Made by a program: the position numbers and the translations under genes. This document shows positions 6,486 to 17,424 of a stretch of 25,166 nt of DNA, piece by piece (the stretch's first letter is position 1; every line of letters starts with the position of its first letter). This DNA is from an uncultured archaeon (lineage in GTDB: Archaea > Asgardarchaeota > Thorarchaeia > Thorarchaeales > Thorarchaeaceae): NCBI GenBank assembly GCA_964590575.1, contig CAZPWM010000041.1, forward strand, positions 1 to 25,166. Direction: 5' to 3'. The notes under the pieces are model-generated. The model worked only from the letters and a program-made list of their open reading frames with translations, did not search any database and had not been told where the DNA came from.

Positions 6486-8381
6486 ATGCGGCAGGACTAT
6501 AGTTATCAAGCGGTTAATGATGAAGCCGTGAGGTCAACAAAGTCCATCAAGAAAAGTACAGGATCATATTACACACCTGGACATCTTGCTAACTTGATAA
6601 CGCAGGACTCTATTTTCAAGTGGCTTTCAGAAAGAGTATCTTCCACAATAAGGAATATTGAAGATCTAGATGGCTTGAGTTCAAATAGGCGAAACACACT
6701 CCTCAATAATATCAAATGTGTTACTATTCTTGATCCAGCAGTTGGAGAGGGAGTATTTCTTCTCGCTGCAGCTAATTGGCTTAGAAAGATCCGAATCAGC
6801 CTTGGTGATAATGATGGAGAAAAGAACCTAAGACAATCAATTGTAGCAGATTGTCTATTCGGTGTGGATTTAGCTCCGCACGCAATCATAACCTGCAAGA
6901 ATAAGATAAGCAACTGGATCAACAAAGAAGAAAAATCAAACACCAAAATGAATATTCGATATGGAAATAGCCTCGTTGGATATGTTAAAATCCCGACCAG
7001 CATAGAAACCTTATCGATGAATGAGTTGGATAATTCTCTCCTTCGTACAATTCATCCACGTGACCCCAGAAAGATTTTGAACATCTATAATGCAGCGAAA
7101 CCATTTCATTGGGGATTGGAATTTCAAAACGTATTTCGTAGCAAGAATTCGGGATTCGATATTGTAATTGGTAACCCACCCTATGGAAGTATCCTTGGGT
7201 CAATAGAGAGACCATTCATTACAACACTGTATCCATACAATGTTGGAGGGGGAAAAAGTGGTACATGGAATAGTGCCGCACATTTTCTTGTCAGGGCATC
7301 ATCTTTGATGAAAGAAGGAGCACAACTTGGTTTTCTTGTGCCTAACAGTTTCTTAAGAGTGAAGCAGTTTTCAAAGATAAGGAACTTTCTTCTGAATCAC
7401 CTCAATCTCTGGAAGATTGTAGATGAAGGGAATCCTTTCGAAGAAGTCACACTTGAGATGGTTAGCTTGTACTGTGGAATGACTCAAGGTGATGGTGAGC
7501 ACAAAATCATTGTGGAGTCAAGAAGGTATAACCTTGAACAATCTAATGTTCTGTCTTCACGGGTGCTCGAGGAAAGTAGAGTCTTTTCAATCTATCATGA
7601 TCATATCTTTTCAAAGATTCTCGAGAGAGGTCAGAAAGGTCTTCTTGTGGCAGGAAGAGGGCGTGATATCCCAAAAGAACATGTGAGGAAGAAACTGACA
7701 TCCAAATTTAAGACACCATACATTACGAGTGGAAGAAGTGTTCAGAGGTATGGTCTGAAAACCCAACATGTGTACTACACTGATGATTGGTTTTGGCAAG
7801 ATTCTGCGTTGAAGGACTCGTTTGAAAACGAATTACTTGTAGCCACAAAGAACTACAGATACCCAAGGTGTATCATGAAACCAAGAGGGATGATACACGG
7901 TGGAGGTATTGTTAGGATCACACCCCTCGACTACAATGTCGACCTCCGCACTCTTGGTTTAATTCTGAATTCGCGACTTGTAAAACAGATATCCATTAGG
8001 TATCTAACTAACTATTCTCAACTCACTTGTTGTCTGAACACCGGCATCATGGAAGATTTACCACTTGTACTACCTAAGCATCCTCGTGTGTACAGAAACC
8101 TCTTTGACACATTAAGTCAACTTCATTCCGACCAGAAGGAAAAGACTAACAAAGAGTATATTCCAGCTCTCGACAGATTAGCGGATGCACTCGTTTATTC
8201 GTTATATTTTGGAGATGACGAATTCGAACAACAAGTAAGCAAAGGTAGGAATGACCTTTCCGTAACTGCTCAAGAACCAGATATTATCAAGATGGTTGAT
8301 GAAATCTTGGAAAATCCCGTTGTTAAAGAACTAGAACATCTTTGTAATGTTCCTGCAACAAGAAAGAGTCGTAGATACTGA
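6486..8381 (+). CDS. N6-adenine DNA methyltransferase, gamma class (TaqI/Eco57I methylase-like), with C-terminal target-recognition region
   Basis: GSYYTP (motif X), ILDPAVGEGVFL (motif I), LFGVD, GNSL, FHWGLEF and FDIVIGNPPY (motif IV). Start uncertain; GTG at 6528 is an alternative. Confidence 0.9.
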   Translation: MRQDYSYQAVNDEAVRSTKSIKKSTGSYYTPGHLANLITQDSIFKWLSERVSSTIRNIEDLDGLSSNRRNTLLNNIKCVTILDPAVGEGVFLLAAANWLRKIRISLGDNDGEKNLRQSIVADCLFGVDLAPHAIITCKNKISNWINKEEKSNTKMNIRYGNSLVGYVKIPTSIETLSMNELDNSLLRTIHPRDPRKILNIYNAAKPFHWGLEFQNVFRSKNSGFDIVIGNPPYGSILGSIERPFITTLYPYNVGGGKSGTWNSAAHFLVRASSLMKEGAQLGFLVPNSFLRVKQFSKIRNFLLNHLNLWKIVDEGNPFEEVTLEMVSLYCGMTQGDGEHKIIVESRRYNLEQSNVLSSRVLEESRVFSIYHDHIFSKILERGQKGLLVAGRGRDIPKEHVRKKLTSKFKTPYITSGRSVQRYGLKTQHVYYTDDWFWQDSALKDSFENELLVATKNYRYPRCIMKPRGMIHGGGIVRITPLDYNVDLRTLGLILNSRLVKQISIRYLTNYSQLTCCLNTGIMEDLPLVLPKHPRVYRNLFDTLSQLHSDQKEKTNKEYIPALDRLADALVYSLYFGDDEFEQQVSKGRNDLSVTAQEPDIIKMVDEILENPVVKELEHLCNVPATRKSRRY

Positions 8382-9711: not shown

Positions 9712-10227
9712 ATGAATGAACCCTTCGCTATCCGTGAGTTTCAGCCGGATGATATCAAATATGTTGTGTCAATCAATCAGATGTGCTTACCAGAAAACTA
9801 TCCAGATCAGTTCTTCATGGGACTTTATTATCATGCACCCAAGGCATTCTTTGTCGCGGAATATGAGGGAGAAGTAGTCGGTTATATAATGTGCAGAATT
9901 GAGAGAGGCATCTCTGGTTTTGGTCGAATGCCTGTGAAAAAGGGGCATATAGTTTCAGTTGCGGTTCTTGAAACTTTAAGAAACAAGGGAATTGGAAAGG
10001 CACTCGTCAAAGCAGGAATGGGTGGTATGATTTCCTATGGAGCTAGTGAGTTTTTCCTTGAAGTAAGGAAGACAAATGAAGAAGCAATTGCAGTCTACGA
10101 AAAACTTGGATATTCTGTCCGTCGAGTATTGAGAGGTTACTATCGCGATGGTGAAGATGCGTATCTTATGCTTAAGAAAGAAAATGTAACCCAAGAGGAT
10201 GTAGAATCAGATGAGCAACCATATTGA
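9712..10227 (+). CDS. ard1: N-terminal acetyltransferase, archaeal Ard1/Naa10 (RimI-like GNAT)
   Basis: CLPENY, GYIMCRIE, GHIVSVAV, R.KGIG, LEVRKTN..AI..Y and YYRDGEDAY. Confidence 0.88.
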   Translation: MNEPFAIREFQPDDIKYVVSINQMCLPENYPDQFFMGLYYHAPKAFFVAEYEGEVVGYIMCRIERGISGFGRMPVKKGHIVSVAVLETLRNKGIGKALVKAGMGGMISYGASEFFLEVRKTNEEAIAVYEKLGYSVRRVLRGYYRDGEDAYLMLKKENVTQEDVESDEQPY

Positions 10228-11128
10228 GGTCCCACTGATTCCGGATTGTTCTGCGTGTATTGTTAATAGTCTAAAAACGCTCATCCCTTTACTCACCGAA
10301 GATGTAGACGAGAAGAACAGTTATTTTTCGTTCGCATTCAAACGTATTTCTGAGGGGTATAGAAAAAAACTCCCGCCCATTCTGCTGTCGATACAGCTCT
10401 ATCAAGAGCTTTCCACAATGGCAGGAGTCTATGACCCTTACTCAGAGATCAAGAGGCTTAGTCAGGAGTCAGCGTTCAAGGCACTTCCATCTATCGAGAA
10501 GAGAATTGATGTTCTTGAGGGATATGACAGGCTGAGAGCATGTCTCGCTGCTTCAATTGCAGGTAATCTTATTGACTATAATACTGCTGAACATAGACCC
10601 GACTTAGGAGCACTCGTTGAAGTCTTCGAATCAATCCTTACTGAGGGGTTTGCTCTTGATGACTCCAAACATCTCTACAGGTCGCTCAAGTCTCGACCAG
10701 GCAACCTACTCTACCTTGCTGATAATGCAGGAGAAGTGATACTTGATATTCCCATTCTTAGGTTCTTGAAAGAACTTGGTTGGAAAACTACCTTTGTGGT
10801 CAAGGGACGGGCAATGATTAACGATGCAACTGAGGAAGATGTCCGTGGAACCGAGATAGAAAAACTAGCTACAATTACAAATAGTGGTGCTTGGGCGCAT
10901 GGCGTTCCAATCGAATTGGTGAGCAAGGAATTCCTTCAGCTCATGGCTCAGAGTGATCTTATCATTTCGAAAGGTCAAGCAAACATTGAAACTGTCCCCG
11001 AAATACAACGGAAAATTGGTGTGGAAACCTACTATATAACGAAGGCGAAATGCTCTCACATCTCACAGGCAATCGGAGCCAGGAGAGGTGACAATGTTGT
11101 TCTCAGGCGACCTATAATAACAGCCTGA
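10211..11128 (+). CDS. DUF89/ARMT1-like damage-control phosphatase
   Basis: N-terminal CxxC, DPY..IK, IAGNLID, LADNAGE, NDAT and SKGQANIE. Overlaps the ard1 end by 17 nt. Confidence 0.88.
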   Translation: MSNHIEVPLIPDCSACIVNSLKTLIPLLTEDVDEKNSYFSFAFKRISEGYRKKLPPILLSIQLYQELSTMAGVYDPYSEIKRLSQESAFKALPSIEKRIDVLEGYDRLRACLAASIAGNLIDYNTAEHRPDLGALVEVFESILTEGFALDDSKHLYRSLKSRPGNLLYLADNAGEVILDIPILRFLKELGWKTTFVVKGRAMINDATEEDVRGTEIEKLATITNSGAWAHGVPIELVSKEFLQLMAQSDLIISKGQANIETVPEIQRKIGVETYYITKAKCSHISQAIGARRGDNVVLRRPIITA

Positions 11129-11246: not shown

Positions 11247-12884
11247 ATGAGTCAACAGGTACCGGTGATTGTTCTAAGAGAGGACACCGAGAGAACGCGT
11301 GGCCGCGATGCTCAGAGAAACAATATCATGGCCGCAATTGTGATTGCCGAAGCAGTCAAGTCAGCCCTGGGACCAAAGGGAATGGATAAGATGCTCGTTG
11401 ATAGTTTCGGTGATATTACAATCAGCAACGATGGAGCTACAATCCTGAAAGAGATGGATGTAGCGCATCCTGCTGCAAAAATGGTGATTGAGGTCGCTAA
11501 GACCGTGGATGCAGAAGTCGGAGATGGTACAACCACAGCCGCAATTCTGACGGGAGACCTGCTCAAGCAGGCTGAAACTCTACTCGACCAGAAGATCCAT
11601 CCAACCACAATTATCAGTGGTTACAGAAAAGCCACTCAGAAAGCTTTGGAGGTCATTGACGAGGTTGCAGAAACAGTGGACCCAGCAGCTAGTGACTACA
11701 AGAAGATTCTCATAGATGTTGCGAAAACTTCGATGTCAAGCAAGTTTGTGTCAACCCACAAAGACACCTTAGCTAAGCTTGTAGTAGATGCAGTTCTTTC
11801 AATTGCTAAGGATATTCCCAAGGGTGAATTATTAGATATCGACAATATTCCCCGTCAAAAGCAAGTGGGAATGAGAGTGGAACAGACTGAACTTGTAAAG
11901 GGTTTAGTTCTTGACAAAGAGGTTGTTCATGCGGGAATGCCAAAGAGAGTCGAAGGAGCCAAAATAGCGTTAATAGAGTCTGCTCTTGAAGTTAGTAAGA
12001 CCGAGTTCGATGCTAAAATCTCCATTTCAAAACCATCTGCTATGCAGAGCTTCTTGGATGAAGAGGAACGCATGCTGACGAGTATGGTCGATAAGATTGT
12101 TGAGGCAGGCGCAAATGTGGTAATTGCCCAGAAAGGTATTGATGATGTTGTACAACACCACCTCGCCAAGCATGGCATCATGGCAGTGCGGAGAATCAAG
12201 AAGTCTGATGTAGAGCGAGTGCACGAAACAACTGGTGCAACTATCGTATCCAAAATACAGAATCTAACTGCAGCAGACCTTGGTAAAGCAAAGCTCATTG
12301 AACAAAGGGATGTCGGAGATGACAAGATGTTATTCATTGAGGGTACACCAAAGTCAAGTGTTGTTACAATACTTGTTCGGGGTGGAACTGACCACATCGT
12401 TGATGAGGTCGACCGTGCTCTTAACGATGCGCTCTATGTTGTAAGAGATGTTGTAATGCATCCCCAGATAACCTATGGTGGCGGTGCACTAGCATCAGAA
12501 ATCTCTAAGCAACTGAGAGATTATGCTTCAACTCTTGAAGGTCGTGAGCAATATGCAGTGAATTCATTTGCTGACGCCATTGAGTCACTTCCAAAAACTC
12601 TTGCTGAGAATGCAGGACTTGACCCCATTGACGTGATTGTCAACCTGAGGAAAGCCCACACAGAGGGTAAAGTGCTTTATGGCATTGATTACACAAAAGG
12701 TAAAGTAGGTGACATGAAGGCAGCTCGTGTTGTCGAAGCGGCTATTGTCAATCGACAGATTGTTATGTCAGCAGCTGAGGCAGCTCAAATGATTCTCAAA
12801 ATCGATGATGTCATTAGCTCCAGAGGCGCGCCAGATATGGGTGGCGGTCCTGGTGGCGATGGTGACTTTGGCGACGACGAATAG
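11247..12884 (+). CDS. ths: Thermosome subunit (group II chaperonin)
   Basis: [41 protein letters not shown] and ILKIDDVI, with a Gly/acidic C-terminal tail. Confidence 0.97.
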
Positions 12885-12920
12885 AAAGAGTCAAACGTAG
12901 AATGAAATCAGGTGTAGCTC

Positions 12921-13595
12921 ATGTCAGAAGGCTCCGAACCACCAAAAGATGTACAAGAAGAGGCTGAAGAAGAGTCTGCTATTGAAGAGATAGTGGCTCT
13001 TTTGACAAACATTCCAGGAGTAGGTCCAAAGACAGCAGAAAAACTGGGTGCTGCAGGTTTTGATACTCTGGAAAAGGTAGTGGAAGCAGACAAGGAGGAA
13101 CTCGCTGCCGCAGTAGCAGGGCTGAGTGTCGCTAAAGCTGAGGCCACAATTGCAGAAGCAGCTGATCTTCTAGAGAAGGTTAAGTCCGGAGCCATCGACC
13201 TGACTGGCAAAGGGAGATCTAAAAGGAAGAAAGCTCCTGAGCCAGAGCCTGATAAACACGAACTAGAGCCTATCGCAGCAATAGCCAGAGCTGAGGAACG
13301 CAAGAGACTTGTGACTGGCTATGATCAAGAAAAAGCAGCGATGGGGATTCCCATTGGTCCGAAGTGGCTAACAAGATTCGAAAAAGCTCGCATCATTGGC
13401 GCGAGAGCCCTTCAAATTTCCATGGGCGCGCCGGTTTTAATTGACATGAAGACAGCACCCAAGGGACGTTTCGGATTTGCAGAAGCTGAGCTTCGAGCTG
13501 GGGTTCTGCCTATGACAGTTCGAAGAACTCTCCCTACAGGTGAGTTTCACGACATTGCATTGTCAATACTTTTGAAGAACACGAGGTTGGACTAG
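12921..13595 (+). CDS. rpoK: DNA-directed RNA polymerase subunit K (Rpo6/RPB6) fused to an N-terminal helix-hairpin-helix domain
   Basis: C-terminal [25 protein letters not shown]...[17 protein letters not shown] is Rpo6. N-terminal [24 protein letters not shown]...GLS..KA is a tandem HhH. Confidence 0.92.
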
Positions 13596-13693
13596 TTCTA
13601 TCCTCGCTTTTCATTTTATCCCAACTATCTATATGTGCAATCATACTACGCCTTAAAAGTAAATCATCATATCTCTACCATTCCTAGTGGTGA

Positions 13694-15019
13694 ATGAAAG
13701 TGCAAGAGTTATTACCCAGCGCAGATCTTATTGTCAAGACACTGCTAGGCTTTGTTGTTGGCGCACTGATTGGCTTAGAACGGCAGAAGAAAATGGAGTC
13801 CGAACGGGTTGTAGGTGTACGGTCTTTTGGTCTTCATAGTCTTCTTGGTACACTTGCTGCATACTCTTCCCAGATTATCGGTGATGAGTCCATTCTTATT
13901 TACGCGATTATAATTTCGTGCATTCTTGTTACATCACAGATCTACTACAAGATGTTTCGTACAATGGGTAAAGGATTGACTACACCACTGGTGTTTGCAA
14001 TTTCTTTTGTACTTGGCATCCTAGTTGGATTAGATACCCCATCTGAAGGGCAACTCGTTGGAATGCTTGGAGTCCTTGCGATGACTGTGTCATTTGGAGT
14101 GTTTGTAGTTCTTTGGTTCAAGGATGAGCTTGCTCATGCTGTTGAGGTCATCACGCGTGATGAGATGATTAGTGCTGTAGAATTGGGTGTCATCATTCTG
14201 TTTCTTTGGCCATTGATTCCAGAAACTATTATGCTGGGGACAATAGCGTACCCACTATTCACGATTTACTTCCTAATTGTAATCCTTCTGACAATTAGTT
14301 TTGCAAACTACTTGTTGGTGAAGAAGTTTAAAGACAAAGGAGTTTATTTCTTTGGATTCTTTGGTGGATTGGCAAATAGTGAAGCCACAGTAACTAGTGT
14401 GACTGATTTTTATGTCAACTCAGAACGAAAAGGTTCTGGAAAGATTGCATTATCTGTCATCTTCGCAAATGTGGCAATGGTTGTTCGAAACGGATTTCTT
14501 CTAATTATTCTAGATACGACATTCAGTCTAATTACATTGTTTCTGATACCTATCGTTGTGATTATAGTAATCAGTATGATTCGCAGCATTCTTGATGAAC
14601 GATCCGAACATCACGGAGAGGGACAAGAGTTTGATACTAAACTTGTTTCACCCTTTGAATTTGGAGCTGCGCTGCGGTTCGCAGCCATATTTGCCATAGT
14701 CTACTTAGTACAGTTAGTACTAACTGAAACGTTTAGTGACACAGGAGTGATTATAGCAGCAATAATAGGCGGATTTGTTTCAGCAGGCGCAGTAGTGGCA
14801 AGTGCCGCAACCTTGTTCGTAACGGGACAGCTGACCTTAGCGATTGCCATAGATGCAGTGATTCTCGCAACTACAATGTCAGTTCTAAACAAGATGTTCT
14901 ATGTCTACGTTGCTGACAGAGAAACCAAGTTGCTGAAAAATGTGATTCGGGATTCGGTCATCATTGGTGGAATATTTATCTTCTATTTGGTATACTTATC
15001 ACTCGGTTTCTTTGTGTAG
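13694..15019 (+). CDS. MgtC/SapB family membrane protein with DUF4010
   Basis: GALIGLERQ...GVRSF, GLTT, GFFGGLANSEAT, SPFEF and GGFVS motifs with many TM helices. Confidence 0.88.
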   Translation: MKVQELLPSADLIVKTLLGFVVGALIGLERQKKMESERVVGVRSFGLHSLLGTLAAYSSQIIGDESILIYAIIISCILVTSQIYYKMFRTMGKGLTTPLVFAISFVLGILVGLDTPSEGQLVGMLGVLAMTVSFGVFVVLWFKDELAHAVEVITRDEMISAVELGVIILFLWPLIPETIMLGTIAYPLFTIYFLIVILLTISFANYLLVKKFKDKGVYFFGFFGGLANSEATVTSVTDFYVNSERKGSGKIALSVIFANVAMVVRNGFLLIILDTTFSLITLFLIPIVVIIVISMIRSILDERSEHHGEGQEFDTKLVSPFEFGAALRFAAIFAIVYLVQLVLTETFSDTGVIIAAIIGGFVSAGAVVASAATLFVTGQLTLAIAIDAVILATTMSVLNKMFYVYVADRETKLLKNVIRDSVIIGGIFIFYLVYLSLGFFV

Positions 15020-16584: not shown

Positions 16585-17424
16585 ATGGTGCGTATGCCAG
16601 TAGTTGCAGGACGGTTCTATGAAGGGAGGGATGACTTACTCCAAGAGCGTCTTAGGAGCTGCTTTTTAGGTTCCCTTGGGCCGGGTCGGCTTCCAGAAGG
16701 AGAACCAGGAACTTCAAGGACACTTAAGGCAGTCATTGCTCCCCATGCAGGTTACATGTACTCAGGTATGCCAGCGGCTCATACTTATCTCAAAATTTAC
16801 GAAGATGGAATACCAGACCACATCGTTCTGCTTGGACCAAATCACACTGGAATGGGTGCAAGACTCGCAGTTTGCAATGACGATTGGCAGACACCTCTCG
16901 GTATCGCGCAGTTCGATAAAATTCTTGGAGCTGCAATTGTTGAGGAAGATGAGTACGCTTCGAATGACTGTATCGCACACAGCAATGAGCATTCGCTCGA
17001 GGTGCAAGTGCCTTTCCTTCAATACACTTTCGGACCAGGTGTGAGTTTCGTGCCCATATGCGTTTCAGACCAGTCATATACAGTCTGTGAATCAATAGGG
17101 AAGACCTTAGCCAAGTTTGCAGATGAGATGGATATTCTAGTTATTGCAAGTTCGGATTTCACTCACTTTGAATCAGCTGAAAGTGCAAGGAAGAAAGATA
17201 ATCAGGCCATGGAGTATCTTGAGTTCTTAGATCCAGAAGGATTCCTTTCTTTTGTGCAGGGACATAGGATTAGTATATGTGGAGCAGGACCAATCGCTGC
17301 AGCAATGGTTTTTGCTAAGGAGAGAGGTGCAACTCAATTTAATGTTCTGAAGTACACAAACTCCGGAGATATTACAAAAGACAACTCTAGCGTTGTTGCA
17401 TATGTATCAGCCACTATGGTTTAG
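16585..17424 (+). CDS. MEMO1 family protein (AmmeMemoRadiSam system protein B)
   Basis: RMPVVAGRFY, APHAGYMYSG, LGPNHTG, WQTPLG, EHSLEVQVPFLQ, ASSDFTH, ICGAGP, YTNSGD and VVAY. Confidence 0.93.
   Translation: MVRMPVVAGRFYEGRDDLLQERLRSCFLGSLGPGRLPEGEPGTSRTLKAVIAPHAGYMYSGMPAAHTYLKIYEDGIPDHIVLLGPNHTGMGARLAVCNDDWQTPLGIAQFDKILGAAIVEEDEYASNDCIAHSNEHSLEVQVPFLQYTFGPGVSFVPICVSDQSYTVCESIGKTLAKFADEMDILVIASSDFTHFESAESARKKDNQAMEYLEFLDPEGFLSFVQGHRISICGAGPIAAAMVFAKERGATQFNVLKYTNSGDITKDNSSVVAYVSATMV

Follow-up and report, generated by a model that had tools for sequence, protein, structure and literature searches.

In bacteria, the C-terminal domain of the alpha subunit of RNA polymerase (alpha-CTD) contacts flanking DNA and activators. 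Chimeras of the Phi29 polymerase with tethered non-specific DNA binders reportedly show better salt tolerance and template retention. The RNA polymerase (RNAP) of crenarchaea carries a lineage-restricted part, Rpo13, whose basic C-terminal tail is described as binding downstream double-stranded DNA (dsDNA) non-specifically (PMC3479171), and T7 RNAP joined to a non-specific DNA binder through a linker of ~30 amino acids (aa) was reported to tolerate salt better (PMC12630135). Here, we describe a gene for the archaeal RNAP subunit Rpo6 (RpoK) that may have given rise to a natural part of this kind. The gene lies in a stretch of 25,166 nucleotides from an uncultured archaeon of the Thorarchaeaceae (Asgardarchaeota; contig CAZPWM010000041.1), hereafter called the window, and its product carries a domain of two helix-hairpin-helix motifs, (HhH)2, in front of the Rpo6 core.

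The existence of this fusion in Thorarchaeota is already known. A paper of May 2026 by Shematorova and Shpakovski (PMC13257274) noted it in one sentence and presented one model (Fig. 7C/8B) with Rpo1, Rpo5 and Rpo8, in which the domain was termed helix-loop-helix. Our literature searches found prior mention of the fusion only there; an Asgard primase preprint was discarded as a prior mention, as its 'hhh' is a motif symbol. The protein family described in PMC13257274 and the one studied here are the same, and the abstract, sections 2.2.2 and 2.2.4, Discussion and figure legends of that paper do not give the distribution, selection, start site, linker motif, origin or paralogues. What we add is the domain assignment, the case for a family-limited in-situ origin, the evidence on selection and start site, a conserved motif in the linker, the occurrence of the cassette on other proteins of the genome, and a convergent class with the domain at the C-terminus.

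Compared with the canonical Rpo6/RpoK/Rpb6, the fused protein has the same core and fold, to which ~135 N-terminal residues including the folded (HhH)2 are added. According to PMC8754651, the eukaryotic Rpb6 tail is an acidic, disordered segment that has no folded domain, whereas the Thorarchaeal extension contains one. The new module and the bacterial alpha-CTD are both small helical modules of the HhH type, joined by a flexible tether to an RNAP subunit that is small or serves assembly. Unlike the alpha-CTD, the module does not belong to PF03118 (no match at E<=1 for the window protein, among 17 families at that level), and it sits on the omega/Rpo6 homologue, at the N-terminal and not the C-terminal end, with a single copy in each enzyme instead of two. 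Rpo13 is likewise restricted to a lineage, but it is a separate subunit, whereas the HhH module is fused to Rpo6; we claim no homology between them. The engineered T7 RNAP chimeras with Sso7d or the HhH of topoisomerase V (Topo V) share the design of a sequence-independent binder on a linker of at least ~30 aa (PMC12630135), except that they are artificial and based on a single-subunit enzyme. The parts of the locus, in window coordinates, are as follows.

12921..12995, + strand: charged N-tail, aa 1-25, of low complexity and predicted to be disordered (predicted local distance difference test, pLDDT, 47-48 for aa 1-20)
12996..13184, + strand: (HhH)2 domain, aa 26-88 (Pfam HHH_5, Foldseek and profile matches)
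13185..13325, + strand: linker, aa 89-135, predicted to be disordered, with a conserved motif (pLDDT 53-65)
13206-13229, + strand: basic patch KGRSKRKK within the linker, aa 96-103 (sequence)
13326..13595, + strand: Rpo6/RpoK core, aa 136-224, with the stop codon (NCBIfam NF002207)
12910..12914, + strand: Shine-Dalgarno (SD)-like AGGTG, 6 nucleotides (nt) 5' of the ATG (sequence)
11247..12884, + strand: thermosome (Cpn60/TCP-1) gene, the conserved upstream neighbour (Pfam Cpn60_TCP1, E 4.4e-177)
13694..15019, + strand: gene for an MgtC/DUF4010 membrane protein, conserved as the downstream neighbour (Pfam DUF4010 and MgtC)

The open reading frame (ORF) at 12921..13595 (+) begins with ATG, runs without interruption and encodes a product of 224 aa. 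An earlier note, made from the letters of the window, had drawn an acidic N-terminus, an HhH domain, KGRSKRKK, PEPEP and an Rpo6 core in this order, and Pfam, NCBIfam and the sequence all agree with that map. The N-tail (aa 1-25) contains 10 acidic residues and one basic residue (net -9), and PEPEP occupies aa 105-109, after the basic patch. HHH_5 (PF14520) covers aa 27-82 with 45.3 bits (E 1.2e-11), well above the cut-off of 27; the 'tandem HhH domain' of the note is thus right as to the presence of HHH_5, but we find one (HhH)2 domain and not two domains. The core was recognised by the NCBIfam RpoK equivalog NF002207 (aa 137-223, E 1.1e-26, 92.9 bits against a cut-off of 71). Pfam RNA_pol_Rpb6 (PF01192) matched aa 147-194 with 25.9 bits in the protein scan, just below the cut-off of 26, and with 29.3 bits in the genome-level search, above it. 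As the fused gene was the sole PF01192 match over the cut-off in the genome (3.4 Mb, 91% complete), it is the organism's only Rpo6, and the idea of a second, core-only copy was rejected. The closest relatives of the protein are labelled Candidatus Thorarchaeota in public records, where they are already annotated as RpoK.

We modelled the protein by AlphaFold2 on a 63-row alignment. Five helices were predicted within aa 14-88 (pLDDT 70-79), followed by a disordered linker at aa 89-131 (53-65) and a confidently predicted core at aa 133-224 (87-94). Foldseek placed the core on Rpb6 (chain F of 2ja5 and 1i50) and RpoK (chain K of 7oq4 and 7ok0) with TMt of 0.74-0.86 and a root-mean-square deviation (rmsd) of 1.2-3.0 Å (1.2-1.6 Å over 69-73 columns). 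From the conservation of the core, we infer that it assembles into RNAP at the Rpo1 interface.

The HhH module keeps the signature residues of its fold. Hairpin 1, PGVGPK (G33, G35, K37 and K41), is of the canonical G-h-G type followed by Lys, and hairpin 2 reads AGLSVAK (G67, S69 and K72); all of these residues are invariant or at least 90% conserved in the alignment. RAD51 K70, which we take to lie in a G-I-S-x-A-K hairpin motif, would correspond to K72 of the fusion. In the Foldseek comparison, the domain was superposed on the N-terminal domain (NTD) of RadA (1xu4, 2f1h and 3etl) with an rmsd of 1.0 Å over 57 columns. When a 29-row profile was compared with solved structures, the best match was an (HhH)2 repeat of Methanopyrus Topo V (residues 623-681, E 8.4e-15), followed by the NTDs of archaeal RadA and RAD51 (~1e-12 to 1e-7) and haloarchaeal L32e chains (E 4e-8); Pol beta and XPF were matched as well. 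The note had described the domain as RadA-N/NusA-AR-like; NusA AR was matched weakly (2e-4). The fold and hairpins are those of the RadA/RAD51 NTD and the Topo V repeats, and the differences are that the Rpo6 copy is net acidic and that a long linker joins it to a subunit of RNAP. In the DNA structures described in PMC9489208, the (HhH)2 domains of Topo V contact the phosphate backbone only, and the RAD51 NTD is reported to bind nucleosomal DNA via Lys64 and Lys70 (PMC10990931).

The linker contains a motif with GK and, further on, (E/D)P-D-x-HEL-P...ER..L-TG(Y/L)(D/E), which is recognisable in all 28 loci compared, from 16 genera. Given this conserved motif, the linker is, as far as its sequence tells, no plain spacer. 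The basic patch is net +2 to +8 in 28/28 members. Two database fragments, P0126 and P0128, turn out of frame right past the basic patch (window 13206-13229); KSKRKK is encoded by A-rich codons, at which indel errors or slippage may arise easily.

The fusion is confirmed, on sequence evidence, to be real and not an artefact. The earlier note had set its presence in related genomes as a test, and the fusion was found to be common property of the family. At the genus level, a full-length match was present in 21/24 other genomes. The class-level search yielded a match in 80/85 other Thorarchaeaceae genomes from 16 genera (81/86 with the window genome), and the fusion was full length, that is, with a match starting at query residue 25 or earlier, in 78 of the 81 genomes with a match. 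The remaining three are cut, two of them (G086 and G052) at contig ends and one (G083) starting at residue 52. The five family genomes without a match, which are 62-92% complete, lack any Rpb6-family match at all; the gene is therefore simply unassembled there, and we rejected a loss of the fusion. An apparent core-only Rpo6 in G056 was also dismissed, as the match runs off the contig end.

Assembly data point in the same direction. A DNA contig (X1), possibly from the source sample, spans 12895-13700 with 0 differences, and a contig from a different study (X6) bridges the linker to the core at 13165-13455. As independent genomes carry the fusion and these two contigs cover it, an assembly artefact, which the note had named as a danger, was rejected. 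Contigs of RNA libraries cover 12883-13191 and 13324-13649, for which DNA carry-over is possible; stretches left uncovered by these runs carry no weight as evidence. The surroundings of the gene are conserved too: rpoK was found between the thermosome and MgtC/DUF4010 genes in 27/27 other family loci fetched, and likewise in the sister family. This arrangement (window 11247-15019) is kept throughout the class, and it differs from the usual archaeal one, in which rpoK sits in a ribosomal-protein/rpoN cluster.

The start site of the long form is conserved as well. In the window, 36 bp separate the thermosome stop from the rpoK start, and the conserved start across the family is of the MS(E/K)GSE type, ~36 bp past the thermosome stop. 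An SD-like motif (AGGTG, GGTG, GAGG or AGGT) lies 3-18 nt 5' of the first ATG in 28/28 family loci. Most of the family loci listed have an in-frame stop 0-16 codons 5' of the start, and three have a longer upstream open frame. The internal Met at aa 141 (ATG 13341), from which the note feared the core alone might be translated, is kept in 22/28 members and replaced in 6/28, and no SD-like motif was found before it in the window. The ratio of non-synonymous to synonymous substitution rates (dN/dS), calculated by the Nei-Gojobori method for 12 loci within the genus, was 0.040 for the HhH, 0.067 for the linker, 0.049 for the core and 0.41 for the N-tail. Values of 0.04-0.07 for the HhH and linker, similar to that of the core, indicate purifying selection on the protein sequence of both, equal in strength to that on the core. 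Translation only from M141 was rejected, as (i) the region upstream of it is under this constraint, (ii) the SD-like motif lies at the first ATG and (iii) M141 is not invariant.

Outside the family, we found only other forms of Rpo6. Among 1.84 billion representatives searched, the full-length N-terminal HhH-Rpo6 fusion was seen in only three (P0121-P0123). Our Asgard survey comprised 201 genomes at least 80% complete, of which 152 belong to 24 families other than Thorarchaeaceae. The full-length form was confined to Thorarchaeaceae, in which 47/48 other genomes have a match. Of the 152 non-family genomes, 143 have a match, and among the matches listed all are core only, beginning no earlier than query residue 120 and lying in open frames of at most 168 aa; the 42 non-family matches not listed are weaker than those listed and hence cannot be full length. 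A fusion of the same order was accordingly not found outside Thorarchaeaceae, either in the 1.84 billion representatives or in the 152 other Asgard genomes.

Long forms of archaeal Rpo6 as such are not rare, with Asgard open frames of up to 168 aa and library representatives of up to 234 aa. The view that archaeal Rpo6 is normally core-only and under about 100 aa, from which the note had started, is corrected by these lengths and by PMC13257274, which describes long forms. Ten long representatives were scanned by Pfam: the extension is free of domains in eight, while P0270 is of a LarA type and P0143 belongs to the C-terminal HhH class described below. In P0270 (553 aa), LarA-type Lar_N and LarA_C domains precede an Rpo6 core (aa 460-538), and the protein may be a read-through or a gene-call fusion. 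Among the Rpo6 homologues listed, P0018 has two HhH copies, and P0032 is of comparable length (325 aa).

The sister family, represented by a single genome (G025), keeps the thermosome-rpoK-MgtC synteny, and its Rpo6 is 153 aa long without HhH (L015:1759-2217 (+)). The sister-family proteins (151-153 aa; G025 and protein P0125) consist of an acidic tip, a short basic patch (KQKPKK in G025), an acidic and Pro-rich stretch, and then the core; the charged tail is eukaryote-like in composition. This form probably represents the state before the HhH insertion. Because the sister family and the 24 other Asgard families have core-only or tail-plus-core proteins, the HhH appears to have been inserted in one family, and the simplest history compatible with the sequences is that an older charged extension received the (HhH)2 cassette in situ, in the ancestor of Thorarchaeaceae, at a point with the acidic tip on one side and the basic patch on the other.

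As the HhH is lineage-specific, it is not ancestral to the eukaryotic RPB6 tail, and the suggestion of the note that the fusion could bear on the origin of that tail is not supported. The N-tail in front of the HhH is the least conserved part of the protein (33% mean identity, in addition to its high dN/dS); its net charge across the 28 members ranges from -18 to +5, being negative in 24/28 and neutral or basic in 4/28. Its likeness to the RPB6 tail, a ligand of the PH domain of TFIIH p62, is compositional only. Our analysis sheds no light on how the eukaryotic tail arose.

The cassette is not confined to Rpo6 in this genome. Topoisomerase VI (Topo VI) subunit A (L033:2375-4534 (+)), with a Topo VI-B-like gene directly upstream (4 bp overlap), has a long Lys-rich N-terminus with two (HhH)2 domains of 41% identity to the Rpo6 HhH, and its relatives have four (P0137) or seven (P0124) HhH copies. 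Ribosomal protein L32e (L118:913-1701 (-)) starts with an (HhH)2 of 44% identity and continues with a Lys-rich linker, an arrangement shared with haloarchaeal L32e, and in P0127 four HHH_5 copies precede L32e. A polytopic membrane protein of 537 aa (L117:1483-3093 (-)) ends in an (HhH)2 (33% identity) and a KKTVKKKKK poly-Lys tail; this C-terminus is cytoplasmic, and the protein may tether DNA to the membrane. Within the genome, the Rpo6 HhH is thus closest to the cassettes of Topo VI-A and L32e (41-44%), not to that of RadA (33%). The recurrence of an HhH beside a Lys-rich stretch on nucleic-acid proteins argues, at the level of sequence, for nucleic-acid binding by the two as a unit.

A second, oppositely ordered class of Rpo6-HhH fusions was found in predicted protein records, on which the class rests. 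In P0143, the Pfam scan placed the Rpo6 core first (aa 13-66), and behind it come an acidic linker and a pair of HHH_5 domains. Six clusters from Logan, ENA and JGI follow this plan, with two HhH in P0143, P0271, P0272 and P0273 and one in P0274 and P0169; the linker of the class is acidic or Ser-rich. The core is closest to a Heimdallarchaeota Rpo6 (L037; 70% over residues 1-94), and the Heimdallarchaeota genomes matched by the alignment of this class have a core-only Rpo6 of ~100-120 aa. No member of the class turned up among GTDB species representatives, the genome search with P0143 gave no relative, and the metagenome contig search with P0274 returned a single unrelated HhH match. Weak overlapping scores for PF03118 were seen in P0143, P0271 and P0273, but none of the stretches passed by itself. 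P0275 and P0276, which are the nearest siblings of the class (78% core identity), have no HhH and end in Lys/Ala/Pro repeats of the AKKPAKK type, tails reminiscent of histone-H1-like DNA-binding tails. Neither our literature searches nor the above-named sections of PMC13257274 gave a mention of a C-terminal HhH on Rpo6; within the literature searched, this fusion is new and previously unreported.

The HhH of the C-terminal class shares 30-35% identity with the Thorarchaeal one, and its canonical G-h-G-x-K-T-A hairpin is the second instead of the first. As the cassettes differ in sequence and hairpin order, the Thorarchaeal and Heimdall-like acquisitions are independent. It is tempting to suggest, with somewhat less than even confidence, that two Asgard lineages separately tethered an (HhH)2 of the RAD51-NTD/Topo V type to RNAP via Rpo6, which would make this subunit a recurrent attachment point for a mobile grip on DNA or chromatin.

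What, then, might the module do? We see about an even chance that the (HhH)2 of Rpo6 is a tethered binder of the DNA backbone on RNAP, acting independently of sequence. In this scenario, the Rpo6 core would take its usual place in RNAP at the clamp base, with the (HhH)2 and the adjacent KSKRKK patch hanging on a flexible tether of ~45 residues. To judge from its relatives, the HhH together with the basic patch would most likely bind the sugar-phosphate backbone of dsDNA without sequence preference, and the disordered linker would let them reach flanking DNA. Such an additional mobile grip on flanking, possibly chromatin-wrapped, DNA may stabilise promoter or elongation complexes. This proposal draws on the following points: (i) the closest solved relatives, the Topo V repeat and the RadA/RAD51 NTD, bind the DNA backbone; (ii) the HhH signature with its conserved lysines is kept, and the cassette is paired with Lys-rich stretches; (iii) a Heimdall-like lineage offers a convergent case of an Rpo6-HhH fusion, with AKKPAKK-type tails in its nearest siblings; and (iv) Rpo13 and the T7 RNAP chimera serve as functional precedents. 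By analogy, it is plausible that a tethered nucleic-acid- or protein-binding module works here like the alpha-CTD, as the earlier note had proposed. For the coupling to repair or the ribosome that it also proposed, we found no evidence, the sole connection being the same cassette on RadA, Topo VI-A and L32e.

Several points weigh against a grip on DNA. The Rpo6 HhH is net acidic (median -4, range -12 to +1, negative in 25/28), unlike the HhH copies of Topo VI-A (net +3 and +6), and it looks in this respect more like the acidic, protein-binding NusA AR repeats, to which the profile gave a weak match (E 2e-4) with no stretch passing alone. L32e bears the same cassette as Rpo6, which gives RNA binding some weight. 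No RNA-library contig bridges the HhH to the core, the RNA evidence being weak. Finally, a single HhH motif of Topo V on T7 RNAP was reported to bring no gain in salt tolerance (PMC12630135).

These points bear on the other functions that can be imagined for the module. Instead of binding DNA, the acidic (HhH)2 may dock onto a basic partner, either by itself or jointly with the acidic tail. Such a partner could be a chromatin protein or histone tail, a transcription factor (such as TFE, TFB or Spt4/5) or a repair factor, in the manner of NusA AR2 on the alpha-CTD or the RAD51 NTD on the H4 tail. The charge of the HhH, the acidic tail in front of it and the profile likeness to NusA AR all favour docking, whereas the canonical first hairpin and the lysines are retained in Rpo6, and the hairpins of NusA AR have lost the second glycine. 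PMC10990931 lists a PDB entry in which the RAD51 NTD binds the H4 tail, which adds to the case for a protein partner, as do the AlphaFold3 contacts of Thorarchaeota Rpo6 with Rpo5 and RID (PMC13257274). Still, the cassette paralogues sit on DNA and RNA enzymes beside Lys-rich stretches and the candidate partner is only hypothetical, and we regard docking as unlikely, though a serious alternative to a grip on DNA. A module that grips structured RNA, such as the nascent transcript or rRNA-like duplexes, could couple RNAP to RNA processing or the ribosome. The cassette on L32e in this genome, its four copies in P0127 and the haloarchaeal L32e match (E 4e-8) would fit, but the best solved relatives bind dsDNA and both Topo VI-A and RadA are DNA enzymes, which leaves RNA binding improbable.

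Region 1.1 of sigma-70 offers a bacterial parallel for yet another role, in which the acidic tail and the acidic helical domain would mimic DNA and fill the DNA channel of free RNAP until displaced by DNA. The negative net charge, the flexible tether and the anchoring at the clamp base are what such a gatekeeper would need. The conserved basic patch of +2 to +8 directly past the domain and the retained DNA-contact signature of the HhH speak against it, as does the tail being neutral or basic in 4/28 members, and no result places the domain in the channel; we consider a gatekeeper quite improbable. That the extension is a neutral, non-functional appendage, or that the core alone is made from an internal start, is extremely improbable. 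M141 in 22/28 members would allow the latter, but the HhH and linker evolve under the same constraint as the core, the fusion is kept across 16 genera, the SD-like motif stands before the first ATG with none before M141 in the window, and an RNA-library contig, weak as this evidence is, covers 12883-13191.

Besides the genes flanking rpoK, Pfam identified in the window an Eco57I-type restriction-modification methylase (6486-8381), an ARMT1-like damage-control phosphatase (10211-11128) and a Memo-like protein (16585-17424).

Rpo6/omega has usually been seen as a passive subunit of assembly and the clamp base. Since a conserved, folded domain of a nucleic-acid type is attached to it and kept under selection, the RNAP of an entire Asgard family has an extra mobile arm. 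If this arm binds DNA or chromatin, it would be a simple example of how multisubunit polymerases gain contacts with their templates by domain accretion, in parallel with the bacterial alpha-CTD, the crenarchaeal Rpo13 and the engineered polymerase chimeras. The Rpo6 grip would then be an archaeal counterpart of the alpha-CTD or Rpo13, as well as a natural version of the engineered processivity fusions, and it would help the RNAP of these archaea to hold or traverse histone-wrapped DNA.

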